Source of the DNA: Candidatus Poribacteria bacterium
GTDB lineage: Bacteria > Poribacteria > WGA-4E > WGA-3G
Length of the DNA: 64,000 bases
Reading direction: 5' to 3'
Assembly: GCA_022821065.1 (NCBI GenBank)
Contig: JAJEEK010000037.1
Span: forward strand, 16,642 to 80,641
Part shown: positions 2,931 to 44,797 of the stretch, one piece after another
How the letters are laid out: the number at the start of each line of letters is the position of its first letter
Numbering within the stretch: position 1 is the stretch's first letter
The notes under the pieces: model-generated
The model's input: the letters and a program-made list of their open reading frames with translations, nothing else
Told to the model about the DNA's origin: nothing
The model's database searches: none
Made by a program: the position numbers and the translations under genes

Positions 2931-4988
2931 TTATTTTTTTCTTTTTATCTCTTTGAGGTTAAATATCCGAAATGTGATGTTGCCGTGTATGTCAATCATC
3001 TGAAGTTTAACACTGTCGTGGCTCGGTTCTGGTAAGTTGAATTCAACAGTCGCCTCTTTCTGGGCATTCAAGAGTTGGTAGTCATGCAGCACGAAGGATT
3101 TTGCTCTTTGTGTGTTTTCCCAATTTTTCTTATTCGTTTCCTCGTTTTTGCTTGACTGGTATCCGGGCAGCGGGGTATCCACCGTCGGTGGGGTAAACAA
3201 CATTGCTTGATGGAGGCCATCAACATCTTTGAGATGAAATTGGAGAACTTTCGACTTAGAGAGGTTGACTGAAGAGAGTCCTACCTCAATTTTCAGGGGC
3301 TCATCAAAGAAGGGTTGCCGCGGATTAAAATAATGGCTCTTATCCAGCCATTGTGCACTGCATTCGGATAACTGCTTCTGTGCGTTACCGTAGGACATCA
3401 GGTAGCTTGGATCTCGGAAATCGTGTTTTAGTCCAAAGGCGTGCCCGAGTTCATGTGCCATCACTTCCCAGTTGAACCCATCATCACCGGACGCTGGAAT
3501 AAAGGCGCGCCCTCCTCGTGTGCTCCACAAATCTTTTTCATAGTCAAGCCCAAAGGGTGTAACACCACCCGCGCCGGCTACATTTCCAATCCCTTCACTA
3601 CTGATATCTACGACAATGAGATGGATGTCTTTTATTCTATCAAACCTTTCAGTAACTTCATCCTCAACCCGCGTAAAAGTATTTTTAAGATAGTACTTAT
3701 CAGTATATTGACCTTCCACAAGATATACCTTTGCACTCCCGTCTTCATTTTTTTCAAAGGTAAAGGTTTTCTTCCCCAATCCGTGGTGCTCCATCTGATC
3801 TGCATAAAACTGCTGTACCTCTTTTATCAACTTGTCTAATTTCTCCGTAACCTCCGGCTGAGCGGCGCGGTCACTCGGTAGGAAGTAGATTAACCGCACT
3901 ATATCTTGGGAAACCGATTCCTGTGGGTTCATATACTGCGAAGTATCCGAGACCCGCAAAACGCCATCACTCCAACCACTTGCTAAGGCAGTTCCATCTG
4001 CCGAGAAAGCAACAGACTTAACCCAATTGGAAGAATTTTCTATAGCGGCGATACGCTCACCATTCTCCAAAGACCAAAACTCTACATCTCCAATACCGCC
4101 ACTGACAAGTATCTGTCCATCAGGTGTAAAGGCAAGATCGCGGACGGGTGCTGTTGTAATCGTGGCATGGTGGTGCCAGTCTGGCAAGGCGTATAGTTCA
4201 ATGTTTCCGTCATCGTCTGCCACGGCCAGCAACAGATTTTCTACATCTGGCGAAAACTCAAGCGTCCTCGTCCACCTTTTATTTTGGTTTAGTGTTTTGA
4301 TAACCTCTTGACTCTCAATATTCCAGATCGTCACGTCGCCCCCGATTTGGCTTCGGCTCGTGGTGGCTAATAGTTTGCTATCTGGTGAAAAGGCAAGTTT
4401 CTCCGGATGACCTCCACGAGATAAGGTGGATCCTGCCGTTACCGCTGTCGGTGTGCGAACATCCCACAACTTCACACCGAGACTGTCATTTGCGAGCCAT
4501 TGTCCATCCGGTGAGAAGGCGATTGGTTTATAACTCATTCTACCAAAAGTATTGATGGATTTTTGCTCATCTATAGACCACAATCTTATACCTCTTGACC
4601 ATCCAGTAATTGCAAGGAATTTGCCATCAGGGGAAAAAGCAAAAGAATCACCGGCAAGTACCGTCATAGGTTCGCTTGTATTTTTTAAATCCCACAATTT
4701 TATCGTGCGTGCTGCGCGACCGAGATTAGAAACACTGACAATAAGAGAGGGATCAATCGGCGAAAACGCGACGGTGTCAATAGAGCTATCGTGATTCGCC
4801 GTTGCGATAAGTTCAGGTGTACCTGGTGGTTCTGCGAATTTTTGTCGAATTTCATCTGGTATTGCAACTGTTCGAGGGGACGGACGCGGGTGATCAATGT
4901 TCCATCGGCGCAGCGTAAGAAGGATGAATATACCGATGAGAACGCCAATGACAATAGCCGATCGAAACAGAATGCTTCTGCGCCGCAT
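2931..4988 (-). CDS. Membrane-anchored WD40 beta-propeller + metzincin metalloprotease (paralog 2)
   Basis: The architecture matches the 960-2921 gene: anchor IVIGVLIGIFILLTL, WD40-like blades, then HELGHAFGLKHDF...LMSY encoded around 3421-3465. The two proteins are collinear along their full length. Confidence 0.7.
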   Translation of the reverse strand: MRRRSILFRSAIVIGVLIGIFILLTLRRWNIDHPRPSPRTVAIPDEIRQKFAEPPGTPELIATANHDSSIDTVAFSPIDPSLIVSVSNLGRAARTIKLWDLKNTSEPMTVLAGDSFAFSPDGKFLAITGWSRGIRLWSIDEQKSINTFGRMSYKPIAFSPDGQWLANDSLGVKLWDVRTPTAVTAGSTLSRGGHPEKLAFSPDSKLLATTSRSQIGGDVTIWNIESQEVIKTLNQNKRWTRTLEFSPDVENLLLAVADDDGNIELYALPDWHHHATITTAPVRDLAFTPDGQILVSGGIGDVEFWSLENGERIAAIENSSNWVKSVAFSADGTALASGWSDGVLRVSDTSQYMNPQESVSQDIVRLIYFLPSDRAAQPEVTEKLDKLIKEVQQFYADQMEHHGLGKKTFTFEKNEDGSAKVYLVEGQYTDKYYLKNTFTRVEDEVTERFDRIKDIHLIVVDISSEGIGNVAGAGGVTPFGLDYEKDLWSTRGGRAFIPASGDDGFNWEVMAHELGHAFGLKHDFRDPSYLMSYGNAQKQLSECSAQWLDKSHYFNPRQPFFDEPLKIEVGLSSVNLSKSKVLQFHLKDVDGLHQAMLFTPPTVDTPLPGYQSSKNEETNKKNWENTQRAKSFVLHDYQLLNAQKEATVEFNLPEPSHDSVKLQMIDIHGNITFRIFNLKEIKRKK

Positions 4989-5006
4989 TGTTAATTTCCT
5001 TAAGAT

Positions 5007-5127
5007 TAGGACTTACGCACTTTTGACTGTAGACTGTTTTGTTAGAAGAAAGTTTTCTAAAAACACAGCATTTTTGCGTCACAAACTAACAGTTTGTGGT
5101 ACAAAAGAGCGTTATGCGTAAGTCCTA
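5007..5127. mobile_element. MITE copy 1 (121 bp, 13 bp terminal inverted repeats, 5 bp target-site duplication AAGAT)
   Basis: The ends are TAGGACTTACGCA...TGCGTAAGTCCTA. AAGAT flanks the element at 5002-5006 and 5128-5132. It is collinear with the second copy at 15000-15152. Confidence 0.7.
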
Positions 5128-5285
5128 AAGATATTGGGTATACCAAGATAGTAGATTCTTCAGAGACAGTTTTTATTTTATCATAAACGTCGTTGGAATG
5201 CAAATCAGAAAAGCCGTCAGTTATCGGCAGTCCGTAGGATCGCTATTAAGGGTCGGCTCCTACAGGGAATTGGAACTAAAAAAGT

Positions 5286-13972: not shown

Positions 13973-14992
13973 TTAAATTTCGGATAAGAGGACAGGACGG
14001 TTTTCGCGCAGTGATTTCAACGCCGCGAAACCCATCACAACAGGTGCGCGACTGTCTGCACCTGTAACCGGTGGCGTTGTGTCTTCCTGAATGCACGCGA
14101 AAAACGTTTGTAGTTCCGAAAGATATGCTGGCTTGTAGCGTTCGAGAAAGAAATATGGTGGCGATGCAGCGCGAATCCCGTCATGACTGCTAAGAGTGAC
14201 GGTATCCGTCGGTGGATTCTCTGCTGTAACCATCCCTTTTGAACCGAAAACTTCAACGCGCTGGTCGTAACCGTAAACCGCTTCTCTGCTGTTGTCAATC
14301 GTTCCGATGACCCCGTTTTGGAACCGTAGTGTGATGATGGCAGTGTCAATATCGCCTACCTCACCGATCCGCGGATCGATGCGGACCCCACCTGTTGCGT
14401 AGACCTCAACCACTTCGTCTCCGATGAGGTAACGCGCCATATCAAAATCGTGGATTGTCATGTCGAGGAAGATGCCGCCGGAGACTTTGACGTATTCGAT
14501 CAGTGGTGGTGCAGGGTCTCGGCTGGTAATGCGAACGATGTGTGGTTCTCCGATCTCGCCAGTGGCGACTGCCTCGCGTACACGCATGAAATTTGCATCA
14601 AACCGACGGTTAAAACCGATCTGAAACTTCACACCAGCTGCTTCCACAATCGCCAAAGTTTCGTCAATCTGCTGAAGGTTGAGTGCAATCGGTTTTTCGC
14701 AAAAGATGTGTTTCCCTGCTTTTGCTGCGGCTTGACAGATTTCGACGTGTGTATTGGTTGAAGAGGCGACCAACACAGCATCAATTCGAGGGTTTGTCAG
14801 GAGCGGACCATAATCGGTTGTTACTATGGGGACATTAAACCGTTCGGCGAGGGATTCGGCATCAGAAATGTTCAAGCCGCAGATCGAGATGAGTTCGGCT
14901 TCGGGTATGTTTTGGGCGATGTGTTCGATGTGGAGTTGACCGATACGTCCTGCACCGATAACGCCGACACCGATTTTTGAGGGGTTATTCAT
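13973..14992 (-). CDS. Gfo/Idh/MocA family NAD-dependent oxidoreductase (inositol 2-dehydrogenase-like)
   Basis: Rossmann motif IGVGVIGAGRIGQLH and the EKP motif (FCEKPIAL). I set the start at ATG 14992 because the longer ORF start lies inside the MITE at 15000-15152. Confidence 0.8.
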   Translation of the reverse strand: MNNPSKIGVGVIGAGRIGQLHIEHIAQNIPEAELISICGLNISDAESLAERFNVPIVTTDYGPLLTNPRIDAVLVASSTNTHVEICQAAAKAGKHIFCEKPIALNLQQIDETLAIVEAAGVKFQIGFNRRFDANFMRVREAVATGEIGEPHIVRITSRDPAPPLIEYVKVSGGIFLDMTIHDFDMARYLIGDEVVEVYATGGVRIDPRIGEVGDIDTAIITLRFQNGVIGTIDNSREAVYGYDQRVEVFGSKGMVTAENPPTDTVTLSSHDGIRAASPPYFFLERYKPAYLSELQTFFACIQEDTTPPVTGADSRAPVVMGFAALKSLRENRPVLLSEI

Positions 14993-14999
14993 AAAATTG

Positions 15000-15152
15000 T
15001 AGGACTTACGCACTTTTGAAAATAAGTGGTTCTGTTAGATGAAATGTTTCTGAAAACACAGCGTTCTTGTGTCACAAACTAACAGTTTTGCGGTGTACTC
15101 ACCCAGATGCGACGTGCATCGTGGTACAAAAGAGTGTACTGCGTAAGTCCTG
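15000..15152. mobile_element. MITE copy 2 (153 bp, same family as 5007-5127, 5 bp target-site duplication AATTG)
   Basis: The ends are TAGGACTTACGCA...TGCGTAAGTCCTG. AATTG flanks it at 14995-14999 and 15153-15157. It carries a roughly 31 bp internal insertion relative to copy 1 and shares the core GTCACAAACTAACAGTTT. Confidence 0.7.
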
Positions 15153-16049
15153 AATTGAATTCAGGTACTGCAGATTCCGTTCTGCGCTTTCGTAGGGGCT
15201 GCCCATTCCGGGTAAGACATCCTGCTCTACAACGATCCAACCGTCGTAGTTCCGATTTCGCAATTCCGCAAGGAACGCTGGAAAATCGACATCACCGTTC
15301 CCTAATTCACAAAAGACACCGTTGCCGACAGAGGTAAAATAATCCCATTCGTCTCGCCGAGAACGGGCAGCGATGTCGGGGTGGCAGTCCTTGAAATGGA
15401 CGTGCCAAATTCTATCGGCGTGTCGGGTGAACGCTTCAAGTGGGTCTCCACCACCGAATCGGTAGTGTCCTGTGTCGAAACACAGCCCGATGAGGTCAGG
15501 ATCGGTGCGTTGCATCAGTGTGTCGATTTCTGCTGCGGTCTCTATGTATCCGGCGCAGTGGTGATGGAAAACGGTGCGTAGACCTGTTTCTTCTCGTACG
15601 GCTTTGGCGATACGGTGTACGCCTTGTACAAAAATGTCCCACTGTTCGGGTGTCAATCCGTGTTCGGGACGGATACGACCAGCGTATTGGGTGCGGTGTT
15701 CTGTGGTGGCGTTGTCGTCTGAAAGGACGATGAACGGTGTGTCGCCAGCGACATCTGCTAACAGGCGTGCGTGCTGTAGGGCTGAGGCTTCACCGGGGGC
15801 GTGTGTCTCCGCATCGGCGAGTGCGACGGCTACAAACGCGCCTAAGAGTGTTAGCTCACGGGAGGCGAGTTCGGCGCGGAGTTGTTCGGGATCGGTCGGC
15901 ATGAACCCCCAATCGCCTAATTCGGTTCCTGTGTAACCGATGGCGTGCATTTCGTCTAATACTTGTATATAATCGGGTGCTTTGCCGTCTAACTCAAACT
16001 CAAGCACACCCCATGAGCATGGGGCATTTGCGATTTTCATTCGACTCAT
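15099..16049 (-). CDS. Sugar phosphate isomerase/epimerase (xylose-isomerase-like TIM barrel)
   Basis: MKIANAPCSWGVLEFE..., HHHCAGYIE, FDTGH and VHFKD are typical of the AP-endonuclease-2/IolE-like TIM-barrel family. The last 18 codons plus the stop (15099-15152) are encoded by the MITE. Confidence 0.75.
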   Translation of the reverse strand: MSRMKIANAPCSWGVLEFELDGKAPDYIQVLDEMHAIGYTGTELGDWGFMPTDPEQLRAELASRELTLLGAFVAVALADAETHAPGEASALQHARLLADVAGDTPFIVLSDDNATTEHRTQYAGRIRPEHGLTPEQWDIFVQGVHRIAKAVREETGLRTVFHHHCAGYIETAAEIDTLMQRTDPDLIGLCFDTGHYRFGGGDPLEAFTRHADRIWHVHFKDCHPDIAARSRRDEWDYFTSVGNGVFCELGNGDVDFPAFLAELRNRNYDGWIVVEQDVLPGMGSPYESAERNLQYLNSIQDLRSTLFCTTMHVASG

Positions 16050-16136: not shown

Positions 16137-17429
16137 CTAATTCTGGGTTTTACTATGCTGCAACATTGTCACGATGTCTTTCGGTAACTGAACATTGTTT
16201 TTTTCCTCAAAATCGGCAGCACTCTCGTAGATTTTATGAAATTCAGTGATAATATTTATTTTTAAATTTCTGGCAAAAGTTAGGTCGAATTTCGCACTTT
16301 CCCATTCTTTTAGGTGTAACCACATGATACCGCGAGCAGCGTAGACCTCGGTAAATTTCGGTTTCAGTTCTAAGATCTTATCATAATCCTGAATAGCACA
16401 TTCAAATTTGTCTGTATGGAAGTAAGCCAAAGCGCGTGTGGCATAAACTTCTGGAAACTCTGGATTTAGTTCTATTGCTTTGCTAAAGTCTTCAATAGCC
16501 TTGTCATACTCACCTTTTTTACCGTAAACTTTACCGCGATCATAATAGGTTTCAGCATCATCGGGCCGGAGTTTTATCTCTATACTGAAATCTTCAATGG
16601 CTTTGCTATACTTATCTTTTTCACTATAAAGGGTGCCGCGACAACCATACGCATCGGCATGTTCTGGGTCAAGTTTTATCACCGCGCTAAAATCCGCAAT
16701 AGCTTTGTCATACGCTTCTGTCTCGTCGTAAAGCTTACCGCGATTGTAATATGCATCGGCATAATCGGGGTTGAGTTCTATCGCTTTGGTATAATCTGCG
16801 ATGGCCTTGCCAAAATCAACTTTATCACGGTAAACATTGCCGCGATTGTAATAGGCTTTGGCATAATTAGGTTTTAGCATTATTGCCTCACTGTAGTCTT
16901 TAATGGCTTTGTCATACTCTCCGATATAACTATAAGCGTTGCCGCGCTTAATATAGTCTTCAACCATTTTTGGGTTGAGGGTCAAGGTTGCAGTGTAAAG
17001 TTTAATGTATCCTTCGGCATCTTCCCTATTTTCAATTAGGAGGCGAGAGGGACCACCATTCAACTCTTGGCAGATTCTGGTAAACCCGATCAATCCAGCA
17101 ACTCCGAGTCTATCAACAAGGGCTTGACTTCCTATTTCATAAACCTCAGTATCTGTCATTTCTCGGATTTCGCTTTGAGGTGCAGCAAATCTTTTGGCAC
17201 GTGCGCGTTCTTCTGCTTCTCTTGCTGTCCGTCCATCTTGGATCTGTTGGACGATAGTGTCAATATCTGGTTGGTCGGCTAACAATTTATGCCGGTCGAC
17301 GGAGTAATCGCCTTTACCCGGTTTGCAATACCGAATAAACCGTTGCACCTGAGAGGCACCGAGTTTATCCGTAAGGACTTTACGACTTATTTCATAAAGT
17401 TCATCATCTGTCAGTTCTATTGCGTTCAT
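16137..17429 (-). CDS. TPR-repeat protein with two N-terminal copies of a ~45 aa antitoxin-like module
   Basis: Module 1 is ELTDDELYEISRKVLTDKLGASQVQRFIRYC and module 2 is MTDTEVYEIGSQALVDRLGVAGLIGFTRIC. About 8 TPR units of the AxxYxxRGxxY type follow. The start overlaps the PIN gene by 26 nt. Confidence 0.65.
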   Translation of the reverse strand: MNAIELTDDELYEISRKVLTDKLGASQVQRFIRYCKPGKGDYSVDRHKLLADQPDIDTIVQQIQDGRTAREAEERARAKRFAAPQSEIREMTDTEVYEIGSQALVDRLGVAGLIGFTRICQELNGGPSRLLIENREDAEGYIKLYTATLTLNPKMVEDYIKRGNAYSYIGEYDKAIKDYSEAIMLKPNYAKAYYNRGNVYRDKVDFGKAIADYTKAIELNPDYADAYYNRGKLYDETEAYDKAIADFSAVIKLDPEHADAYGCRGTLYSEKDKYSKAIEDFSIEIKLRPDDAETYYDRGKVYGKKGEYDKAIEDFSKAIELNPEFPEVYATRALAYFHTDKFECAIQDYDKILELKPKFTEVYAARGIMWLHLKEWESAKFDLTFARNLKINIITEFHKIYESAADFEEKNNVQLPKDIVTMLQHSKTQN

Positions 17430-18026: not shown

Positions 18027-20270
18027 TCACCGCTGTGTTAACATTAACGCGATGTCTTCCGGTAACTGAAGATCATTCTTCTGCTCAAAGTCAGCAACGC
18101 TTTCGTAGTCGTTATAAAATGCAGCAGTAATATCCATTCCCATGTTCTTTGCTTGAGTCAGATCTGCCTTGGCTTTCTCCCATTCTTTTAACTGTAACCA
18201 AGCCTCCCCCCGAGCCCCGTATGCCTCGCCATAATCGGATTTGAGTTTTATCGCAAAACTATAATCCTCTATAGCCTTGCCAAGTTCACCTTTCATACGA
18301 TACGCAACGCCTCGCATACGGTATACTTCAGCATCATTAGGTTCAAGTTTTATTGCTACGTTATAGTCCTCTATTGCTCCGTTAGTTTTACCTGTGATAG
18401 CATAAGCAATACCACGGTTGCTATAGGCTTCGGCATAATCAGGTTTGAGTTCTATTGCTTTGTTAAGGTCTTGTATTCCTTTGTCATACTCGCCTTTGTT
18501 GAGGTAAGCAGCACCACGATTACTATAGGCTTCGGCATAATCGGGTTTGAGTTCTATTGCTTTGTTAAGGTCTTGCATTCCTTTGTCATATTCGCTTTTC
18601 CTAAAGTAAGCGGCACCACGGTTGCTATAGGCTTCGGCGTAATCAGGTTTGAGTTCTATTGCTTTGTTAAGGTCTTGTATTCCCTTGTCATATTCGCTTT
18701 TCCTAAAGTAAGCGGCACCACGGTTGCTATAGGCTTCGGCGTAATCAGGTTTGAGTTCTATTGCTTTGTTAAAATCTTGTATTCCCTTGTCATATTCGCC
18801 TTTGTCAAGGTAAGCGGCACCACGGTTGCTATAGGCTTCGACGTAATCAGATTTGAGTTCTATCGCCTTGCTAAAATTTTGCAAGGCATTGTCAAGTTGA
18901 TTTTTTTTTCCATATTCCACTCCGAGATTGTTATAGGCACTTGCATAATCAGATTTCAGGTTTACTGCCGTGCTAAAGTCTGCAATGGCACGATTAACAT
19001 CGCCTTTATCGCTGTAAGCCATTCCGCGATTGTTATAGGCGTTCACATAATAGGGGTCAAATTCTATCGCTTTGTTATAGTTCTTGATAGCATTGTCAAG
19101 TTCACCTCTCTCGTCATAAACCACGCCTCGATTGTTATAAGCCTTGGAAAACTTTGGATCTAACTTTATTGCTTTATTATAGTCTTCGACCGCCAGATCA
19201 ACCTCACCTATTTCTTTATAAATTAGACCGCGGTTATTATAAGAATCTGCAGATTCCGGTTCCAAATCTATCGCCGTGTTAAAATCTTGGAGAGCACTGT
19301 CGTGCCTACCATTTTTGCCGTAAGCCACTCCACGATTATTATAGGCATTTGCACAATCAGGTTCCAAATCTATCGCTATATTAAAATCTTTGAGAGCTAA
19401 GTCAAATTCACCTTTATCGCGATAAATCGCACCGCGATTATTATAGGCTTCAACACAATCAGGTTTCAATTTTAAGGTTTCGGTGTAATGTGCGAGAGCT
19501 TTTTCATACCAGTTTTGTTTTTCTTTTCTTTCGCTTACTAAGTCTCCTCTGTTTTGATTGATTACCCCTTTACCAAACTCAAGCATAGGATTGAGGTATC
19601 CGCCTAACCATTTTATAAATCCATGGACATCTTTGTAAATCTTTTTGGTAGATATGTTGTGATACTTTTCAAGATGATTTAGGACGGGAAGTTTGAGTTC
19701 TTTTGGAATAACCACCACAAGGTCTGGATTGATAAAACCTTTTGGTGATCGGAGGAGTACACTTTTTTGGGATTCCACCCGTTTAATTGCTTCTGAAGGT
19801 GTTTCCGATTGGTAATCTTCTGACTCTCTTTTTTGTAAGATAACCCGGCCATCTTTGTGGTAGGATCTATCGCAGGCAAAAAAGAGAGCAATCAGGTAGT
19901 CAGTTGTGAAGTCTATAAGATTGGTCTTTCCACCATAGTGTTGGAGTTGTGCTAAGATTTCAAAATCACTGATTGTTTCGCTGCCAACTTCATACAAATA
20001 CTCTTTTGCCGCTTCCAAAGTCCCCTTTTCCATTTTCTCAATCTGAGGTTCAATAATTTTACGGTACTCTTCTATACCCTCTTCCATTATAGCATCAGTC
20101 AATAATGCGCGATATAGATTTGAGGAAACCTTTCCATGGTAAGGATGTTCTTTATACTCTTCCGGTTCACCCCGATAGATGTAGTCTCCATCAGCGGATT
20201 TTTTTATTATTTCTTGAATCTTTTCCAAAACGCTATCAAGATTCTCTTGGATAGTGGATTCACCGTTCAT
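18027..20270 (-). CDS. FRG-domain protein fused to a long TPR array
   Basis: The N-terminal region contains LAQLQHYGGKTNLIDFTTDYLIALFFAC, which matches the FRG-domain core motif. About 14 TPR units follow. The C-terminal ~50 aa are shared with the 16137-17429 protein. Start set at ATG 20270, preceded by GGGAGAGAG. Confidence 0.65.
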   Translation of the reverse strand: MNGESTIQENLDSVLEKIQEIIKKSADGDYIYRGEPEEYKEHPYHGKVSSNLYRALLTDAIMEEGIEEYRKIIEPQIEKMEKGTLEAAKEYLYEVGSETISDFEILAQLQHYGGKTNLIDFTTDYLIALFFACDRSYHKDGRVILQKRESEDYQSETPSEAIKRVESQKSVLLRSPKGFINPDLVVVIPKELKLPVLNHLEKYHNISTKKIYKDVHGFIKWLGGYLNPMLEFGKGVINQNRGDLVSERKEKQNWYEKALAHYTETLKLKPDCVEAYNNRGAIYRDKGEFDLALKDFNIAIDLEPDCANAYNNRGVAYGKNGRHDSALQDFNTAIDLEPESADSYNNRGLIYKEIGEVDLAVEDYNKAIKLDPKFSKAYNNRGVVYDERGELDNAIKNYNKAIEFDPYYVNAYNNRGMAYSDKGDVNRAIADFSTAVNLKSDYASAYNNLGVEYGKKNQLDNALQNFSKAIELKSDYVEAYSNRGAAYLDKGEYDKGIQDFNKAIELKPDYAEAYSNRGAAYFRKSEYDKGIQDLNKAIELKPDYAEAYSNRGAAYFRKSEYDKGMQDLNKAIELKPDYAEAYSNRGAAYLNKGEYDKGIQDLNKAIELKPDYAEAYSNRGIAYAITGKTNGAIEDYNVAIKLEPNDAEVYRMRGVAYRMKGELGKAIEDYSFAIKLKSDYGEAYGARGEAWLQLKEWEKAKADLTQAKNMGMDITAAFYNDYESVADFEQKNDLQLPEDIALMLTQR
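18410..18930. repeat. Near-identical 102 bp (34-codon) tandem repeats inside the FRG-TPR gene (about 5 units)
   Basis: CTATAGGCTTCGGC recurs at about 18421, 18523, 18624, 18726 and 18828. The encoded units AIELKPDYAEAYSNRGAAYFRKSEYDKGIQDLNK are almost identical. Confidence 0.85.
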
Positions 20271-20406
20271 TACTCTCTCCCGCAAGTGCAATTTTGTTCT
20301 ACATTGAAACAACACTTGTTCACTACAAAGGTACCAATTGAATTGTCCACCAAATTAAACTTATCCCAATCGTGCAGTCGCTATGCATTTTCACGATTTG
20401 GCTTCA

Positions 20407-21284: not shown

Positions 21285-23177
21285 ATGTTTCCTACGATTG
21301 AAGCACAGACGCAACTCCAGACACCACCAGCATGGGCAGTGCTTGAACGTCAACTTATTGATAAAATGAATGCGGCGGGACCGCAGGTCTTGGAGAGATA
21401 TACACGCCCAGATGGCACGCTGTTCTGGCCGACAAACCCGGATTTTCAGAGTATCGACGGACTCGACGATGCCTATGAGAGTTTTCATAACTGGCCCCTC
21501 TTTTATATGCTCGGTGGCGACGCGCAATTTTTGGTCGATGCGGATATGGAATTTGATGTTATCACAAACGATATGGCACGATATGGTACCGGTCACGGTT
21601 ATCCGATGGTCGTGAAGGAATATCAACCCGGTTACGACTGGTTTCATCAAGGCGAAGGGAACTATCTCTTTTATATACTCTGTATGGCGGATCCGTCAAA
21701 CGCGAAGCATATCGAGCGCGCGAAACGGTTTGCTGGGTTCTTCATGAACGAAGACCCTGATGCTGAAAACTACGACAAACAGCATAGGATTATCAAATGT
21801 GCGATGAACGGCAGTCAGGGAGCGGCGTTTTGGGCGTTCGGTGGACATCCGTATTGGCCCTGGGATGGCTACAATATGCCGTTCTACGATGTACCGGGAT
21901 GCACGAGTCATGAAGCGGTACGAGAAAACGAAGCGTTGCGCGTCCGCATGGGGCAGCTGATCTGTGAGCGGCAAGGTGTTGGGGATTCAGTCGTCAACCT
22001 CGCAGCGACAACGCTTGCTACGAATGCCTATCTGCTGACTGGTCAAGAGAAATATAAGGCGTGGGTGACGGAATACGTTGACGCATGGATAGCACGCACG
22101 GAGCAGAACGGCGGTATCGTCCCTGATAACGTCGGACTTACGGGAAAGATTGGCGAACATATAGACGGTAAGTGGTACGGCTCTTATTACGGTTGGAGTT
22201 GGCCCCACGGATGGCATAGCGTCGGGCAAGCGGTCAGTATTGCTGGACAGAATGCGGCGTTGCTTTGGCGAGACTTGGCGTACCTTGATTTCCCACGCTC
22301 CCAGATTGACGTTTTAATCGAGCAGGGGATTGAGAGAAACGATCAACTCTATGTGCCACAGAAGTACGGCGATCCGGGGAAGGTTAACTATGTCCCTGGG
22401 GCTTGGCTGCAATATCCGATTACAAACGAAGATGGAACGGCTTTGCAAGTGGACGGTTGGTTTGAATTTATGCCGATGCACGCCTCGGATGTTGCACACC
22501 TATGGGCACTGTCAATGGATCCGGCGGATCAAAAACGGGCAGAGAACATCTCGAAAAAGACGGGTTCAAAATTCGATATTAACGCGTGGCATCATACGAA
22601 GGATAGCGGCGGACACGACGGATCATGGCTTGCGTATATCCGGGGTGAATATCCAGAGTATCCAGAAGCGATCCTCAATTACAACCTTTCGCAGGTTGAG
22701 GCACGTCTTGATTTTATGGCGAACGATGAAGAGGATCCGGCGAACTATGGAGATGCGTATTTTCAAAGGCGTAACCCGATCACGTGTGAAGGACTGGTGC
22801 AACTGACCTGCGGGGGTCCATTGCCACACTATAACGGTGGGTTGCTCGTGACGCGGTTACGGCATTTTGACGGACAACGAAAGCGGCCCGGGCTGCCACC
22901 GGATGTCGGTGCCTTGATTACCGAAATGACAGCGGACACGACGGAGCTGCGGCTCGTCAATCTTAACACGACGGAACGGCGAGAAGTTATTGTGCAAGCC
23001 GGTGCGATGGGGGAACATAATTTTAGTTCAGTGCGTGTCAAAGACAGTCAAAATGGACAAGCGACATCGGTCAATGGAACGTATTTCCGTGTTCAGCTGC
23101 CGCCGAATACAGAAATTGATTTAGAATTGGGGATGGAGCGTTTTGTGAATGCGCCGTCATATAGGTATCCGTGGTAA
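21285..23177 (+). CDS. Conserved hypothetical protein (630 aa), no domain recognised
   Basis: This is a long uninterrupted ORF with ordinary composition. I could not name a motif with confidence. It may be a glycan-active alpha/alpha-barrel type, but that is unsupported. Confidence 0.45.
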   Translation: MFPTIEAQTQLQTPPAWAVLERQLIDKMNAAGPQVLERYTRPDGTLFWPTNPDFQSIDGLDDAYESFHNWPLFYMLGGDAQFLVDADMEFDVITNDMARYGTGHGYPMVVKEYQPGYDWFHQGEGNYLFYILCMADPSNAKHIERAKRFAGFFMNEDPDAENYDKQHRIIKCAMNGSQGAAFWAFGGHPYWPWDGYNMPFYDVPGCTSHEAVRENEALRVRMGQLICERQGVGDSVVNLAATTLATNAYLLTGQEKYKAWVTEYVDAWIARTEQNGGIVPDNVGLTGKIGEHIDGKWYGSYYGWSWPHGWHSVGQAVSIAGQNAALLWRDLAYLDFPRSQIDVLIEQGIERNDQLYVPQKYGDPGKVNYVPGAWLQYPITNEDGTALQVDGWFEFMPMHASDVAHLWALSMDPADQKRAENISKKTGSKFDINAWHHTKDSGGHDGSWLAYIRGEYPEYPEAILNYNLSQVEARLDFMANDEEDPANYGDAYFQRRNPITCEGLVQLTCGGPLPHYNGGLLVTRLRHFDGQRKRPGLPPDVGALITEMTADTTELRLVNLNTTERREVIVQAGAMGEHNFSSVRVKDSQNGQATSVNGTYFRVQLPPNTEIDLELGMERFVNAPSYRYPW

Positions 23178-23207
23178 AACAAGGGATAATGAATAAGTCC
23201 TAAAGAA

Positions 23208-23462
23208 TTAGGATCTAATCAGACGTTCATATTCATCATGCTTACCAATCCAAATCCAAGTAAAATCATTATCATCTTTAATAGCAAGTGCTCTATAAGC
23301 CTCTCCTACACGAACAGACCAATACTTGCCAACTTTCTTAAAATGGAGAGATAAGTGTCGAGGATTTGCTTTGAGCAAATCGAAATTTTGTCTTGCAACC
23401 CTTTGCACAGGTTCTGGAAGCTGCTGAAGATGTCTCCAGAAACGCGATGTTGTTCTATGCAC
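23208..23462 (-). CDS. RelE/ParE-superfamily type II toxin
   Basis: The 84 aa product has LPEPVQRVARQNFDLLKANPRHLSLHFKKVGKYWSVRVGEAYRALAI...WIWIGKHDEYERLI, a typical RelE/ParE-like pattern. It directly abuts the upstream small ORF. Confidence 0.65.
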   Translation of the reverse strand: MHRTTSRFWRHLQQLPEPVQRVARQNFDLLKANPRHLSLHFKKVGKYWSVRVGEAYRALAIKDDNDFTWIWIGKHDEYERLIRS

Positions 23463-25226: not shown

Positions 25227-26678
25227 TTAGTTTTGGTTTCCGAAGAGTTCGAGTACCTTCAACTGGTCCATAGCGGCGACGATCTGCGGGTCGTGCTCGA
25301 GCTCGTCTTGAGGCGTTTCAGTGATTTCTGCAAGTGCGTATTTCAGTCCGCGATCGCTGAGGATGATCTGCTCTTCTGTGAGTGCGTCGCCTAAGCGTTG
25401 GTAGTTCTGTCGGAGTCTCGCGGCTTGCTCGTCATCGCGTGCGGCATGTTCAGCATCGGTAAGTTTGTTTAGTACGTCGTCGCCATTCTCTTCGATAAAG
25501 GTTTTGACCTTCTCGTGATTCTGGAGTTTCAACTGCATCAGCCGTTCAGACCGGCTAAACCATTCGGTTTCAACATCGGGTATGATCCCAATTTTCTCGA
25601 TGTCGCCGCCGTTGGGTGTATAGTAGCTCGCGACGGTGAGTTTAACAGCAGATTTTCCGTTTCTGAGTCGGAACACGCGTTGGACAGAAGCCTTCCCGAA
25701 AGTTTTTCCACCCATGACGAGTCCGCGTTTGTGGTCTTTTACGGCACCTGCGACGATTTCAGAGGCACTTGCGCTACCACCGTTGACGAGTACAATTAGT
25801 GGAAAATACTCCCGTTTGATCCCGTCCGCGGGGAAATTATCGCGGGATCCGGGGCCTTTACCTTGACTATAAACGACGAGTTGACCGGGAGCCAGGAAAT
25901 CACTTGCGATCTCGACAGCTGAAGAGAGTAAGCCGCCTGGGTTTGAGCGGAGGTCAAGGATGATTCCACGGACATTTTGTGCGTTGAAGGCATCAAAGGC
26001 GTTATCGACATCATCTGCAGTTGTATCAAGAAATTGATTGATTTTGATGTATCCGATTTTATCGCCGATAATATTTTGCTCAACGCTGGGGATCCGGATG
26101 ACTTCGCGGGTGATGGTGAGTTCGATCGGGCGGCTCTCGTTTTCACGAATAATCGTAATTGAGACCGAAGTTCCGGGTTCACCGCGTAGCCGATCGACAG
26201 CATCCGTCAAAGACATCGTTGCAGTGGATTCACCTTCAATTTGGCTGATGATGTCGCCGTTTAGAACACCTGCGAGTGCAGCGGGATTATTTTTAAAGGG
26301 TGTAATCACAGTCAACATATCTTCTCGAATACCGATTGTCATGCCGAGTCCGGCATATTTACCTTGGTTCTGTGTCTGAAACTCAAGGTAGTCTGGGATG
26401 AATTGGCTGTATGGATCCAATTCGCGCAGCATACCGTTGATGGCACCTGCTATGACCTCTTTGCTATCGGGGGTATCAACATGGTTCTGTTTGACCTGCC
26501 CCAAGATTTCAGAAAGAAGAGCGATGTTTTCCAGCATTTTGCTGTCGGATTCCTCTGCTGTCTTTTCCGACCCCCAAGTAGGTTGGAGGAACGAAGAGAT
26601 AAGGAATACAGACACCAAGATGTGAAAACAGATTTTAGGTAAAGTGTGCGATCCAGAGTTTGTTATTAGCAGTTTCAT
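25227..26678 (-). CDS. S41 family carboxy-terminal processing peptidase (PDZ domain)
   Basis: There is a signal/anchor, a PDZ segment [35 protein letters not shown], and the S41 motifs [12 protein letters not shown] and [17 protein letters not shown]. Confidence 0.88.
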
Positions 26679-26718
26679 TTTTTTCCTCCTGCAGTCCGTT
26701 TTGGAATAACCCCTAAAT

Positions 26719-26742
26719 CCCCCTTATCAGGGGCTTTAAGAG
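26719..26742. repeat. 25-nt hairpin-containing motif, copy B (CCCCCTTATCAGGGGCTTTAAGAG)
   Basis: It matches 12364-12388 apart from a 1-nt indel. It lies 41 nt upstream of the S41 peptidase start codon. It is followed by TGCGTAAGT, which resembles the MITE terminal repeat. Confidence 0.6.
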
Positions 26743-26756
26743 AAAATGCGTAAGTT

Positions 26757-27239
26757 TTATTTGTATAGCAAGTTTCGCAATCGTCGGATGTTTGGAATGC
26801 GAAAAGCGATGAAGGCAGCGACCGCTGCGTAGAGTAGGTCAATCTGCGTCAGTCGTTGTTGCATCAATTCCCATACAGATTGCCCTTTAAAAACTGTTGT
26901 GGCGATCGGCATCGCTTGTTGTATGGACATGTTGTTTTCCTTGCTAATCTGTTCAGCGATTTGCGCGACGGCGTTCCACTGGACATCGAGATATTTTCCG
27001 ATAAAGATACCGAATATTGCGAAAACCGCAGCACCGACACCGACAAGCCTCCACGTTGTTTTTGCGTCTGGTGAGAGGCTACGGCTGCTTGTCAGCAGTA
27101 TCCCTGCACCGGTTAATACACCAATACTGATAGCGACGAAGCCAGCGGTGTGTCCTGTCCACTGGATATATTTTGCCCAGAGTACACCGCCGAGTGCTGC
27201 GCCCAAGAAGCCTCCAAACGGTGCTATCACAGTGTTCAT
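26757..27239 (-). CDS. Hypothetical integral membrane protein
   Basis: The 160 aa product has 4 hydrophobic segments and no recognisable motif. Its start abuts the gatA stop. Confidence 0.4.
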   Translation of the reverse strand: MNTVIAPFGGFLGAALGGVLWAKYIQWTGHTAGFVAISIGVLTGAGILLTSSRSLSPDAKTTWRLVGVGAAVFAIFGIFIGKYLDVQWNAVAQIAEQISKENNMSIQQAMPIATTVFKGQSVWELMQQRLTQIDLLYAAVAAFIAFRIPNIRRLRNLLYK

Positions 27240-40321: not shown

Positions 40322-41752
40322 ATGACTCCTGAAAACAGTAAAACCCAATCACGAAGTGCTGAACTCCGTGAACAAGTCGCCGTGCTTGATGCTGAACTTA
40401 CTGAGGATTTCAAAGCACAATTCTCAGTATCTCCCTTCTTGTCGCGGAAAATTGTGAGTTTTCAAGGAAATAAGGATAAACCTGCGTATAGTTGGTACAA
40501 ATACAAAGAAGCCTTCTCAGTCCCCCTTGTTGAATATTTCCTCAGTAGTTACGATGGACAAATATCAGAAAAGGTGCTCGATCCGTTTGCTGGGATAGGC
40601 ACAACGCTGTTTGCCGCAAGTTCTCAAGGAATCCCTGCCGATGGTATAGAATTGTTGCCTATCGGACAAGAGATTATCCACGCACGCCTTTTGTCTGAAA
40701 GAGAAATGTCGTCGGATGATCTCGCTACACTTGAGCATTGGATAACCTCTTTTCCTTGGAACGAATGTCGAGAAAGGGTGCCATTCAGTACAATCCGAAT
40801 CACAGAGAACGCCTATCCGCAAGAAACAGTGGAGACAATCGAAAGGTATAGAGGGGCACTCCATGAAGAAAATGAGAAAATCCAGACGATTCTGCAATTC
40901 GCACTACTGTGTATTTTAGAAAGCATCAGTTACACCCGAAAAGATGGACAGTATTTGCGTTGGGATGCTCGATCAGGTAAGAGACGACCTGGGACAAAGG
41001 CTTTCGACAAAGGTGAAATCCTTCCTTTTGATGCTGCTATAACCGCTAAGCTCAAAGAAATTTTATCGGATATCCGCAATGCTGAGACCCCTCTAACGCT
41101 TTTTCCTGTTAAACAGACAGCGAAGGATATTAGGTTATTCAAAGGTTCATGTCTTGAGATTCTTCCAACACTTGAAACGGCTGCTTACGGTGCAGTTATG
41201 ACTTCTCCACCGTATTGTAACCGTTACGATTACACGCGGACTTATGCACTTGAACTCGCGATGTTAGGATTGACACATACAGAAGTTTCTGATTTACGGC
41301 AAGAAATGCTCAGTTGTACTGTAGAAAATAGAGAAAAGGATCTCTTGAAAATCTGTCCGCAGTGGAATCCATTTATAGAAGCAGCCAGTCAGCAAAAACT
41401 ACTACAGGCAATATATGCCTATCTTGAACATGAAAAGGCATCCGGCAATTTAAACAACAGTGGCATCCCAAGGATGGTTCGCGGATATTTCTCTGAAATG
41501 GCATGTGTCATCGGCGAATGCGCTCGCGTCCTAAAGCCAAATGCGCGTCTTTTCATGGTAAACGATAACGTACGCTATGCGGGTGTAAGCATCTCGGTAG
41601 ACACGATTTTATCCGACGTTGCGCGGTCCCTCGGTTTTGAGGTGGAAAAGATCCTTGTTGTCCCCGGCAAGAAAGGAAACAGCAGTCAGCAAATGGGAAC
41701 GTATGGGCGGGTACCCCTTCGGAAATGCGTATATGTCTGGAGAAAGAGATAG
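40322..41752 (+). CDS. DNA methyltransferase (N6-adenine/N4-cytosine type, motif I before motif IV)
   Basis: The AdoMet motif is LDPFAGIGTT (about aa 87). The catalytic motif is VMTSPPYCNRYDY (SPPY, about aa 297), about 200 aa further downstream. An AAGGA ribosome-binding site lies 8 nt after the SDR gene stop. Confidence 0.8.
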   Translation: MTPENSKTQSRSAELREQVAVLDAELTEDFKAQFSVSPFLSRKIVSFQGNKDKPAYSWYKYKEAFSVPLVEYFLSSYDGQISEKVLDPFAGIGTTLFAASSQGIPADGIELLPIGQEIIHARLLSEREMSSDDLATLEHWITSFPWNECRERVPFSTIRITENAYPQETVETIERYRGALHEENEKIQTILQFALLCILESISYTRKDGQYLRWDARSGKRRPGTKAFDKGEILPFDAAITAKLKEILSDIRNAETPLTLFPVKQTAKDIRLFKGSCLEILPTLETAAYGAVMTSPPYCNRYDYTRTYALELAMLGLTHTEVSDLRQEMLSCTVENREKDLLKICPQWNPFIEAASQQKLLQAIYAYLEHEKASGNLNNSGIPRMVRGYFSEMACVIGECARVLKPNARLFMVNDNVRYAGVSISVDTILSDVARSLGFEVEKILVVPGKKGNSSQQMGTYGRVPLRKCVYVWRKR

Positions 41753-42698
41753 TGCCATATCGCCGACATTTATCCACCAGTACCGACCTCATAACTGCTC
41801 CCGAGGAAATTCGCGCCGGTTTCGTTGCTTTGGCTTTGGAAAGAAGTCGGCAAGCGTCCCCTTTTGTAGAACAAGCGCGTGCTCTGAAAATTTCAGCTAT
41901 GCGTGCTAAACGCCCTAGCGAACTGCTTGATATTCAGGGAATACGAACTGCCCTACTAACCGCGTCTGGATTTTCAGAAAAAGCAACTACACATACAAAT
42001 GAAACCGATAAAACAATTGCTATTCAAAGTTTTATAGAGAAATTTTTAGAGCCAGCAGGGACGAATTTTGTTGAGGAACTGGTCTACAGATTTCTGTTGA
42101 CACGCGGAGATTCATTAGGGGCTCAATGCGAAATATCGCAGGGAAACTGGCAGAAAGAAAAGTTAATCGAGCTATCATTTCTGCACTGACACTAACCGAA
42201 ACAACTTATCAGTGGCTTAATGCTGCGAGTAACACGTGGATCGACGGGACACGCGACGATGCGGACATAGAATTGAGTCTCAAAGGACTCAGTTGGAAAA
42301 AGGACAAAGAAATACGAACACTGGTTTACAATCGTACAATTCCGCTTGTAGGAAAAAACATAGACATGTGTCTACTCCATTGTACACCAGATGAAGTGAA
42401 ACCTGCAACTTACAGAATACCTGAGAAGTTTATTGCCTTTGGAGAGTTGAAGGGTGGAATAGATCCAGCAGGGGCAGATGAACATTGGAAAACTGCTCAA
42501 ACTGCCTTAACACGTATCAAAACCGCTTTTGCTAATGTGAATCTATCGCCAGATCTCTTTTTTATTCCGGCAGTTATCGTTGACAGCATGGCACGAGAAA
42601 TTTGGAACCAACTCGAGGAAGGCACTCTGAAAAATGCAGCTAACTTAACAGAGCCGGATCAAGTCGCATCGTTAGCTAATTGGCTTGTTGGTTTGTAG
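41752..42698 (+). pseudogene. Type II restriction endonuclease-like gene (PD-ExK) split by a 1-nt frameshift at a G-run
   Basis: Track ORFs 41725-42189 and 42126-42698 overlap in adjacent frames. One extra G in GGGG (42118-42121) would read ...LLTRGDSLGGSMRNIAGKLAERK. The second part carries D (NIDMCLL) ... ELK (FGELKGG). The span is 947 nt, one short of a multiple of 3. A GTG start at 41752 overlaps the methylase TAG. Confidence 0.5.
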
Positions 42699-42770: not shown

Positions 42771-43283
42771 TCAGAGATAACCTGCCTCGGATAGTAGATT
42801 AGCGAGGTTTCTTTTTCTACCACAACGTCCTATCAAAATCTGCAGGGGTTTACCTTGGAAGTTCACTGTAAATTGTTGTCGATGTCTTGGATTCGTCCAG
42901 TTAATGCCCCGTCCGTGGAACAGCACTGGAACGTAGACGGTTTCTCCACCTTCCTTTCGATTCGGAGCGATAGTAGCGGCAAATTTCAAACTGTTTTCTA
43001 ATTTTTCGCGGACATCTGATTCCTCGGCTTTACCACTTTTGAGTTCAATTGGAACCGCTATGAAGGTCTTTTTAGCATCATTGTCGTAAAATAGCATCCG
43101 GTCACACCGTTTTCCGCTCTCTCCACGTGCGTCAAATTCTTTCTCTACATCTATTATGACCTTCTGGCTGGGTATGTCGGTAAGGTATACCTGACAGCCT
43201 TCTCCACTGCATGAATTCGTGAGGCTGTCTGAGGATACCTGCTCTTGAATGTGGGTAAGACTTTTATTCAGATTCAACCGCAT
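42771..43283 (-). CDS. Small PD-(D/E)xK-type putative nuclease, partner of the upstream ATPase
   Basis: GKRCDRMLFYDN...FIAVPIELKSGK gives a D...E-x-K arrangement on alternating beta-strand-like segments. It overlaps the ATPase gene by 20 nt from ATG 43283 (an alternative TTG lies at 43304). Confidence 0.45.
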   Translation of the reverse strand: MRLNLNKSLTHIQEQVSSDSLTNSCSGEGCQVYLTDIPSQKVIIDVEKEFDARGESGKRCDRMLFYDNDAKKTFIAVPIELKSGKAEESDVREKLENSLKFAATIAPNRKEGGETVYVPVLFHGRGINWTNPRHRQQFTVNFQGKPLQILIGRCGRKRNLANLLSEAGYL

Positions 43284-44715
43284 CGCTCGCTTTGGTTTGC
43301 TCAATTCTGTTTTGGAGTCCTGCGGACTGGTTATAGAGGTCCTCCGCTATATCCAAATGATCCTCTGGCTCTATACCTTCAACAAGGTCAAAGGGGAGTT
43401 CTGTGACCGGTTCGTTCTTATAGAATTGCCACGCGCCGACCTCTTCTTTTCTCAGGTAGTCTGCTGATTCACTTGTGGATTCTCCGAGCTTCTGCAATTC
43501 ACCTTCGCGGATTAGGTTTCCGATTTGTTGGAGGAGATAGTTGCTATGTGTTGTAATCAGGACGCGAACACCGGCTCTGACCAAACGGGCAAGGGTTTGC
43601 GCAATTTTGGTTTGTGCACCCGGATGTAGGTGAGATTCAGGTTCTTCAATGATGATCAAGTCCCCTGGTCCGATGATACCTTGCAGAAGATAAACTAAAG
43701 GTGCAAGTTCAGATACCATCGCCGAGGCGTGGCTCATCCGCAGTGTCTCTTTCCCTTGATCTGGACGGTATAGAAATTCCGAATACGCTTCTGGCGTGGA
43801 GCGTTTAACCTCTATTCTACCCTCCAACAGATCCGTCTCCAGTTGTTCAGCGGCGCGACGTATGCTGCTCGATGATGTGCCGATTTCCGTGTAACTGATG
43901 ACCCACTCCAGAAAATCCGCTATCATTCCGGAAAATGTAGATGATTCAAGGCGATCTAAACCGATGCGCGTCGTCCGCTTGATGAGAGAAAGTTTGATCA
44001 CACCGAGGCTTTGCATGATGCCGCTCCGAGCGGCAGGCAAGTAGTATGAATCCGAACTTCTCCACCGACGGGCATGTAAGGTCCGAAATAGACGTTCAAC
44101 ATCGGGTATCTCATGCAACTCAGTTTTACGCCTTGCGTCGTTTGGGGCGAGGAGAGTCATGTCTGGGTTGATATGCCCGGTTATAGTGGGTTTAGCGGAT
44201 CCAGCGGCTTGCATCTCAAAATCCCAATACTTTTGATTGCCTTCGCGAACCGACAGTGAAACTTTCATCGGGTTGTCTTGGCTGCCGGTGAATCGAATTA
44301 ACTTAGAAACAGTCTCAAAGTCGAAGCACCGTATAAGTTCGTCTGGGAAGCCTTCCTGATCTGTGAGTATAGACTGTGACCGAGTGGTTATCTGTTGGGG
44401 TAAATCAGAAAATTTAAACGGACGCTCAGGCGTGTTTAATTTTTCGAGTGCCTCTAATATGTCTTGTTCTAACGCCTCCCGCTGACTTTGTGGGTAACCG
44501 TCTCGCGAACGGTAAAGAAAACTAAAATGGGAAGCAACAAAGTCTGCCCAAGGAAATTGTGGGATACCCCCAAAATGTTTGTGTAATGCGTAGATGAGCG
44601 CGGCGAGATACGTCTTGCCGGTGTTACTCTCACCGACGAATACAGTCAGCGGACGCAGGTCTATCTCTGCCTTTTCTATGGGACCGAAGTTTTTTACTTT
44701 AATGTAGATGTCCAT
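43264..44715 (-). CDS. ABC/SMC-type (AAA_15/AAA_21-like) ATPase
   Basis: Walker A VGESNTGKTY, a long helical insert, Walker B/D-loop DLIIIEEPESHLHP and H-loop LITTHSNY. Start set at ATG 44715, preceded by AGGAGA. The longer track ORF would run through the promoter. Confidence 0.8.
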   Translation of the reverse strand: MDIYIKVKNFGPIEKAEIDLRPLTVFVGESNTGKTYLAALIYALHKHFGGIPQFPWADFVASHFSFLYRSRDGYPQSQREALEQDILEALEKLNTPERPFKFSDLPQQITTRSQSILTDQEGFPDELIRCFDFETVSKLIRFTGSQDNPMKVSLSVREGNQKYWDFEMQAAGSAKPTITGHINPDMTLLAPNDARRKTELHEIPDVERLFRTLHARRWRSSDSYYLPAARSGIMQSLGVIKLSLIKRTTRIGLDRLESSTFSGMIADFLEWVISYTEIGTSSSSIRRAAEQLETDLLEGRIEVKRSTPEAYSEFLYRPDQGKETLRMSHASAMVSELAPLVYLLQGIIGPGDLIIIEEPESHLHPGAQTKIAQTLARLVRAGVRVLITTHSNYLLQQIGNLIREGELQKLGESTSESADYLRKEEVGAWQFYKNEPVTELPFDLVEGIEPEDHLDIAEDLYNQSAGLQNRIEQTKASDAVESE

Positions 44716-44749
44716 TGTTTTTTCTCCTATTGGTAATGACTTCAAATCA

Positions 44750-44778
44750 ATTATATGCACATCTGCAATCAATTTCAA
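44750..44778 (-). promoter_or_regulatory. Consensus sigma-70 promoter of the ATPase/nuclease operon
   Basis: On the minus strand it reads TTGAAA, 17 nt spacer, TATAAT. It lies about 35 nt upstream of ATG 44715 and just downstream of the neighbouring gene's stop (44798). Confidence 0.5.
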
Positions 44779-44797
44779 GGAAAACAAGGGGTCATTG

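Follow-up and report, generated by a model that had tools for sequence, protein, structure and literature searches.

A probable MITE superfamily with 13-bp inverted ends and 5-bp target duplications in Candidatus Poribacteria

Bacterial MITEs, e.g. RUP of Streptococcus pneumoniae, MITEAba12, Nezha of cyanobacteria and Chunjie of Geobacter, are non-coding elements of ~100-300 bp, and several of these named families make a TA or a 9-bp duplication. The Correia elements of Neisseria (CREE/NEMIS) have ~26-bp repeats, a TA duplication and promoter and IHF motifs; to our knowledge, they are restricted to Neisseria and have no known autonomous partner. Among insertion sequences (ISs), IS1380, the ISAba11 group of IS701, IS1634 and ISH3 make duplications of 4-6 bp and have terminal repeats of ~13-17 bp, as summarised in ISfinder. 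REP/REPIN and IS200/IS605-type elements have, as far as we know, neither target duplications nor terminal inverted repeats.

The element described here resembles the bacterial MITEs in its terminal inverted repeats, fixed-length duplication, many copies, intergenic location and polymorphism between strains. It differs from them in its ends (YAGGACTTACGCA), in a variable, AT-rich duplication of 5 bp and in its host, an uncultured candidate phylum; furthermore, unlike for the named MITEs, its cognate IS was not found in ~1.7 Mb. With the Correia elements it shares two size classes set apart by one internal block, a copy number of ~100 or more per genome, a position between genes or at gene ends, co-transcription with its neighbours and a long hairpin fold. 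In contrast to them, its repeats are 13 bp long, its duplication is 5 bp and variable, no promoter motif was found in it and the block that separates its size classes also lives outside the element. Like the ERIC/IRU and BIME mosaics of enterobacteria, it is an imperfect palindrome that takes discrete blocks at fixed internal sites and is associated with mosaics of REP-like hairpins and other short motifs, but it has a fixed-length duplication and defined terminal repeats, whereas ERIC and BIME are without clear ones. Its likeness to IS1380, IS701-ISAba11, IS1634 and ISH3 lies in duplication length and short terminal repeats, although no such IS was found in the DNA examined.

The window, i.e. 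the whole stretch of DNA that was analysed, comprises 64,000 nt of a Candidatus Poribacteria bacterium (GCA_022821065.1, contig JAJEEK010000037.1, positions 16,642-80,641) and is ordinary core chromosome, with alaS, recX, uvrA, a UvrD-type helicase gene, ftsZ/ftsA/ddl/mur and many WD40, TPR and GFO/IDH/MocA genes. With a probability of about 0.9, two short stretches within it belong, as copies, to a family of non-autonomous DNA transposons (MITEs) in Candidatus Poribacteria (Table 1). Copy 1 reads TAGGACTTACGCA...TGCGTAAGTCCTA and copy 2 TAGGACTTACGCA...TGCGTAAGTCCTG, each with the 13-bp terminal inverted repeat; in the right repeat of copy 2 only the outermost base departs from the perfect complement, and the exact 13-mer occurs in the window just at these four ends. 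The copies are collinear, i.e. the first 89 nt are 83% identical, one indel follows and the last 32 nt align again. A family profile (nhmmer) recovers copy 1 at E=2.6e-30, copy 2 at E=3.4e-24 and no other copy in the window, while the family covariance model scores the two at 126.6 and 91 bits, respectively. The element is non-coding at either length and neither copy codes for a transposase.

Table 1. Coordinates of the element copies and related features in the window
Feature	Position	Strand	Remarks
MITE copy 1, short form	5007-5127	+	121 bp; terminal inverted repeats 5007-5019, 5115-5127
Target-site duplications of copy 1 (AAGAT)	5002-5006 left, 5128-5132 right	.	identical letters
Left internal hairpin (P2), copy 1	5035-5065	+	single-sequence fold; family support moderate
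Conserved internal hairpin (P3), copy 1, CACAAA-CTAACAG-TTTGTG	5080-5098	+	two stem pairs covary
MITE copy 2, long form	15000-15152	+	153 bp; terminal inverted repeats 15000-15012, 15140-15152
Target-site duplications of copy 2 (AATTG)	14995-14999 left, 15153-15157 right	.	identical letters
Two-hairpin module (TGCGGTGTACTCACCCAGATGCGACGTGCATC), the copy 1/copy 2 indel	15089-15120	+	32 nt
Truncated one-ended sister-family copy (TAAAACTTACGCATTTTCTCTTAAAG-CCCCTGATAAGGGGGATTTAGGGG)	26700-26759	-	aligns with L096:991, L024:3976, L002:2481

A sequence-only reading had already described both copies with their ends, coordinates and perfect 5-bp flanking repeats, and rereading the letters of the window bore all of this out; it also gave the right distances, 18 nt and 7 nt, to the minus-strand start codons, which are the ATG at 4988 for copy 1 and that at 14992 for copy 2. 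It correctly saw a single internal indel, the size of which is 32 bp instead of the ~31 bp given. Two further sites had been proposed as degenerate ends: that at 26748-26756 is the end of the truncated sister-family copy, while that at 23192-23204 finds no support, the family profile missing it at E<=10. A third copy at 23171-23217, 70% alike over 47 nt, was likewise rejected on the profile, and to us it appears to be a local palindrome, TCCTAA/TTAGGA, that follows a stop codon. The window had been said to hold no transposase, and none of the 43 ORFs with individual Pfam tables, out of 49 non-overlapping ORFs of at least 120 aa, has a transposase domain; the scan of all 49 gives the 25 commonest of 146 families.

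The window also contains several features of separate interest. Tandem paralogous WD40 plus reprolysin-like genes (960-2921 and 2931-4988, minus strand) and two TPR genes of 102-nt (34-aa) repeats (16137-17429 and 18027-20315, minus strand) account for most of its direct-repeat families. At 40322-42695 on the plus strand, two overlapping ORFs (41725-42186 and 42126-42695) behind a DNA methylase gene make up a BsobI-type restriction endonuclease, an arrangement which suggests a frameshifted and probably inactivated nuclease; an AAA_15/AAA_21 ATPase gene (43267-44787) adjoins it.

The element is widespread in the phylum. A scan of one genome per species (query AGGACTTACGCAMTTTTGA) gave at least 105 loci, and among the matches listed 103 of 105 belong to ~35 Candidatus Poribacteria assemblies, including the single-cell genome WGA-3G and complete long-read chromosomes. 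The remaining two come from one MAG labelled 'Cytophagales' and are alike at the ends but different in the interior; they are identical 121-bp elements (L022:1459-1579 and L076:2676-2796) in which the same ends extend to ~16 bp, and either the transposase specificity also occurs in a second phylum or the MAG was wrongly binned. Family lengths are ~92, 119-130 and ~153 bp. The window is present nearly entire in one sponge metagenome run (X1), and 31-mers of the element alone are common to dozens of sponge, coral and marine metagenomes and four metatranscriptomes. Contig depth over the window rises from ~60-75 to 10^3-10^5 exactly at 5007-5127 and 15000-15152, and the 173-343 contigs per DNA run that align to the copies disagree in their flanks (agreement 0.4-0.5), the disagreement starting beyond 5006/5008 and 5126-5128 in hundreds of contigs. 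Such a sharp rise in depth together with disagreeing flanks is the signature of a sharp-ended dispersed repeat. Seven small elements in ~380 kb of non-redundant DNA, i.e. ~1 per 50 kb, were counted in 400 kb around IS copies in two complete chromosomes, stretches that had been picked for another reason, and a Poribacteria genome is estimated to hold about 100 copies. The further copies that the sequence-only reading proposed to search for therefore exist, as hundreds of contigs per sponge metagenome and at least 105 genome loci.

These copies carry the marks of transposition. A set of 108 repeat-bounded copies was taken from the listed scan loci and the window, and 58 of them have a perfect 5-bp duplication exactly at the boundary of the 13-bp repeat, against 0.34 expected from control offsets, at which 5-bp flanks match in 0.32% of cases. 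A further 15 have one mismatch and the other 35 have two or more; we take these 35 to be old copies. Other duplication lengths or offsets are about absent. The sequence-only reading held that the flanking repeats in the window would be coincidental if other copies lacked them, which is not the picture given by 58 of 108 perfect repeats at the same boundary. A/T makes up 83% of the letters in the duplications, compared with 53% in the fetched loci, none of 96 copies lies inside an ORF and the 12 inner pairs of the terminal repeats are paired in 92-99% of 101 copies. In MAG JAJDXV, nine contigs each carry a copy of one subfamily; six of these copies are identical over 121 nt, and all nine have perfect duplications, each different, which points to a recent burst and so to a recently active transposase.

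Empty sites are also found. At copy 1, contigs from runs X1, X2 and X9 join position 5001 to 5128, skipping 126 bp and keeping a single AAGAT, and the letters shared at the joint are five (AAGAT) in X1 and X9 and two in X2. These contigs derive from sponge or marine metagenomes and represent relatives ~95% identical to the window. At the site of copy 2, ~90% identical relatives have unrelated 32-45-nt spacers and one relative (run X6) has the element. Empty-site alleles, which had been suggested as something to look for, are therefore precise for copy 1, and the ends, duplications, copies and empty sites all favour the original reading of the element as a MITE.

In the proposed mechanism, a transposase supplied in trans would bind both ends, cut AT-rich intergenic DNA with a stagger of 5 bp and insert the element there, gap repair then producing the 5-bp duplication. 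We infer that this enzyme is most likely a DDE transposase, as target duplications from staggered cuts are typical of DDE transposases. No similarity to the element was found among the PLSDB plasmids, Rfam gave no match at gathering score in the window and none at E<=10 on copy 2 or on a module-bearing hairpin, and a literature search found no report of the element. The earlier claim of a new family is plausible, given no match in Rfam or PLSDB and no report in the literature searched; we regard the element as one of a familiar kind, within which it would form a new family and indeed a superfamily.

The superfamily is evident from the ends, which are common to unrelated interiors: those of the main family, of a G-rich family 92 nt long, of a 'CTCTTAAAG...' family and of families built internally of one or two REP-like hairpins with a GTAG head. 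A sister family starts CTCTTAAAGTCCCCCTGATAAGGGGGATTTAGGGG, and its truncated copy in the window lies ~20 nt upstream of the start codon (26678) of an S41/PDZ peptidase gene (25227-26678). The element at L121 has the same ends, an interior made of a REP doublet (GTAG-headed hairpins) and the duplication ATAAA, and many one-ended remnants of the 13-bp ends are present in the fetched loci. Unrelated interiors with common ends imply that one transposase specificity appears to mobilise the whole superfamily.

An autonomous element with the same ends was found neither in the window nor in 105 + 87 + 36 fetched loci (~1.7 Mb, nearly all poribacterial), and none was found around unpaired ends. Several candidates were rejected, and the IS-size repeat pairs in the loci enclose ordinary genes. 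A 3.1-kb stretch flanked by CCAAA (L007/L092) contains a 965-aa ORF, the orthologous counterparts of which at other loci have sigma-70 domains, and this ORF does not resemble a transposase. A 2.5-kb segment (L096:991-3530) with inverted ends of the same rare variant (TAGGACTTACGTA) has no transposase and no duplication; it contains an FRG-domain gene and a repeat-rich ORF that on reading resembles a TPR protein, and may be a passenger-carrying (MIC-like) element. Transposases beside an unpaired end at L054 belong to two nested ISs, both with other ends. The first (L054:1701-3106) is a 1.4-kb IS with a 425-aa DDE_5/DDE_Tnp_1 transposase; this abundant IS701/IS4-like type differs from the element in its ends (ACTAWAGTTTGGACAAT) and its 8-9-bp duplication. 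It also occurs at L106-L111 and L199-L218 and is very common in Poribacteria, its transposase having hundreds of 80-88% identical database proteins, many on contigs of ~1400 bp. The second is 1.1 kb long, with a 353-aa transposase, ends GAGGGTGTTTCATAAAT and a duplication of ~7 bp read from a single insertion only. An IS1595-like IS was also rejected as the parent, with ends GGCTCATGTAAAAAGTAAGTGCT and an 8-bp duplication. Ends were thus read for three poribacterial IS types, and the terminal repeats differ from YAGGACTTACGCA in each. A generic search of all loci for IS-like inverted repeats with 3-9-bp duplications gave chance-level matches only, a screen for multi-copy ORFs gave no mobile gene and the 400 kb around IS copies in two complete chromosomes contained no long element with these ends. 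As a lead, a 5-bp duplication with short ends presumably fits IS1380, ISAba11-type IS701, IS1634 or ISH3, and the ends of ISEcp1 (IS1380 family) share a loose TAG....TACG.CA pattern with YAGGACTTACGCA.

The interior of the element is structured. In the main-family alignment (A2, 79 copies), P3 is a conserved hairpin, CACAAA-CTAACAG-TTTRTG, with two covarying pairs, AU50/GC26 and AU36/GC24/CG16/UA3, the latter 100% paired. At P2, 60-95% of cells are paired across the family, with some compensatory pairs. The terminal stem, P2 and P3 form a Y-shaped three-helix fold that recurs in single-sequence folds; overall 85% of cells pair, compared with 32-46% when the partners are slid. RNAalifold on the MAFFT alignment returned the terminal stem only and the inner helices came from a hand-drawn structure and covariance model, realignment to which gave the same picture. 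As a separate observation, columns 92 and 113 of A2 (window positions 5082 and 5096) form a C-A mismatch in 59 of 79 copies, while both window copies have C-G. Compensatory base changes are not expected of plain decaying junk, so the element may be under structural selection; the constraint on the interior could reflect selection on structure for mobilisation or at the RNA level, or correction of the DNA palindrome.

This structure raises the question of whether the family is instead a structured non-coding RNA or regulatory gene family kept for its fold, with the terminal repeat as the closing stem of the three helices. The fold, the excess of paired cells and the two strongly covarying stem positions agree with such a function, as do, weakly, an excess of G-U over A-C in plus-strand helices (read from the pair counts) and an abundance of RNA contigs. 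However, template-switch correction in DNA palindromes also produces compensatory changes, and the 5-bp duplications, empty sites and bursts are signatures of insertion and not of a gene family. The unrelated interiors have just the 13-bp ends in common, Rfam has no match and orientation to neighbouring genes is nearly random, with a weak bias of 30 vs 19 in co-directional contexts. Family members were found in four metatranscriptomes (as undirected contigs), but over-expression is not clear: in the same three samples, the ratio of element to ThuA depth is 147, 212 and 4240 in RNA and 690-850 in DNA, and as the former bracket the latter, transcription is roughly in line with copy number. An RNA or regulatory gene family is thus an improbable explanation compared with a MITE. 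The same orientation count gives no support to any significance of the position of both window copies 5' of minus-strand genes, to which the sequence-only reading had drawn attention, and an orientation rule was rejected as a property of the family.

The most unusual thing seen is the 32-nt block by which copy 2 exceeds copy 1. Its consensus, TGCGGYGTAnnCRCCCARATGCGAnnTGCATY, forms two mini-hairpins, in each of which one pair covaries almost perfectly (CG62/TA14/other 2 in the first, AT49/GC27/other 2 in the second). Within a sublineage, the block is the sole difference between long and short copies. Once the block is taken out, two copies from one genome (L010:3137 and L019:5929) are identical at 121 of 123 positions; this pair, L009:360 and L046:57 are the long copies with a short counterpart at >=95% identity, while the other long copies, including the window pair, are at 84-86%. 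A scan of metagenomes found 90 instances of the block, only 8 of them in the MITE. The block lies at L003:4280, L041:4255, L095:2119, L095:7549 and L103:4256 and, in 82 instances, in L112-L198; where it is not part of the MITE, it sits in the loops of REP-like hairpins of several kinds. Outside the MITE, the block has a constant orientation to the GTAG head and always follows TT(T/C), without duplication and sometimes in tandem. We tentatively propose, as a possibility that we consider rather doubtful, that it is a separate ultra-small, strand-specific module that repeatedly enters or leaves single-stranded hairpin loops; its hosts would be the REP-like hairpins and the inner hairpin of the MITE, and its spread could depend on an HUH-type enzyme or on templated repair. 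If true, the transposon would harbour a repeat that in turn harbours another, and the block might be the smallest mobile unit yet described for bacteria. Alternatively, the block may be a conserved protein- or RNA-binding motif kept in loops by selection.

Poribacteria contain families of REP-like hairpins, e.g. GTTCGTAGTAGCGCAATTC..ATTGCGC and CCGGTAGGTTCGGTTTCCTAACCGAACC, which often adjoin a single YAGGACTTACGCA end (L014:508, L032:4605, L053:4849, L096:3518, L097:7135 and the L112-L198 contexts); REP-like hairpins and single ends make up a BIME-like mosaic repeat system. It could be argued from this that the element itself belongs to the mosaic repeats of the REP/BIME type and owes its spread to a RAYT (HUH tyrosine) transposase and not to a DDE enzyme. 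In the alignment, GTGG or GTAG mostly stands before the inner hairpin, as in REP heads; GTAG-headed REP-like hairpins abound in these genomes, which also contain IS605 OrfB genes, and some same-ended elements such as L121 contain REP doublets. Against this, a 5-bp duplication at the boundary of the 13-bp repeat is the rule, and the element departs from REP/REPIN in having terminal repeats and a duplication at all, only its inner hairpin being REP-like, so that spread by RAYT is very unlikely. Chance or local duplication with coincidental flanking repeats, for which there is only the presence of just two full copies in 64 kb, is refuted by the family-wide copies, the duplications and the burst and has a negligible probability.

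Returning to the MITE copies in the window, their insertions have visibly affected two gene junctions. On the minus strand, copy 2 interrupts the letters between ...AAT TCA ATT and TTA TGA. Deleting it in silico with one AATTG restores ...AAT TCA ATT TTA TGA, the TGA of which overlaps ATG AAT AAC (ATGA), the start of the downstream GFO/IDH/MocA gene; the upstream gene then ends ...NSIL*, the same C-terminus as in relatives without the element. Copy 2 went into the final two codons of a gene for a xylose-isomerase-like TIM-barrel protein (15099-16049, minus strand) and replaced the terminal Leu with a 16-residue tail, i.e. the last 16 codons and the stop codon come from the element and the protein now ends ...NSIQDLRSTLFCTTMHVASG*. 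The ATGA-coupled pair is split by 158 bp, with 106 nt now between the stop codon and the start codon that follows. Copy 1 is upstream of a WD40/reprolysin-like (metallopeptidase) gene, in a divergent intergenic region and at 18 nt from the ATG; the AAGGA ribosome-binding sequence of this gene lies outside the element. A promoter-like site is located further upstream (5204-5175), and if it is used, copy 1 would be part of the 5' leader of this gene. The idea that the element supplies an outward promoter found no support, as no sigma-70-like promoter, and no intrinsic-terminator-like site, was detected within either copy; on reading, the family consensus offers a -35-like TTGACT but lacks a -10 that could be used with it.

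Poribacteria live as abundant symbionts in sponges and are uncultured, and MAGs and single cells are the only sources on the dynamics of their genomes. Insertions of the element differ between closely related populations, so it can serve as a strain-level marker, and an element of ~100 copies explains assembly breaks in short-read MAGs. It has altered a C-terminus and separated two ATGA-linked genes, and in leaders and intercistronic RNA it would add a structured stretch of 120 nt. At least one transposase specificity appears to have moved a variety of short cargos. Taken with the nested 32-nt module, the REP-like hairpins point to a small-repeat system in this phylum that is rich and undescribed.
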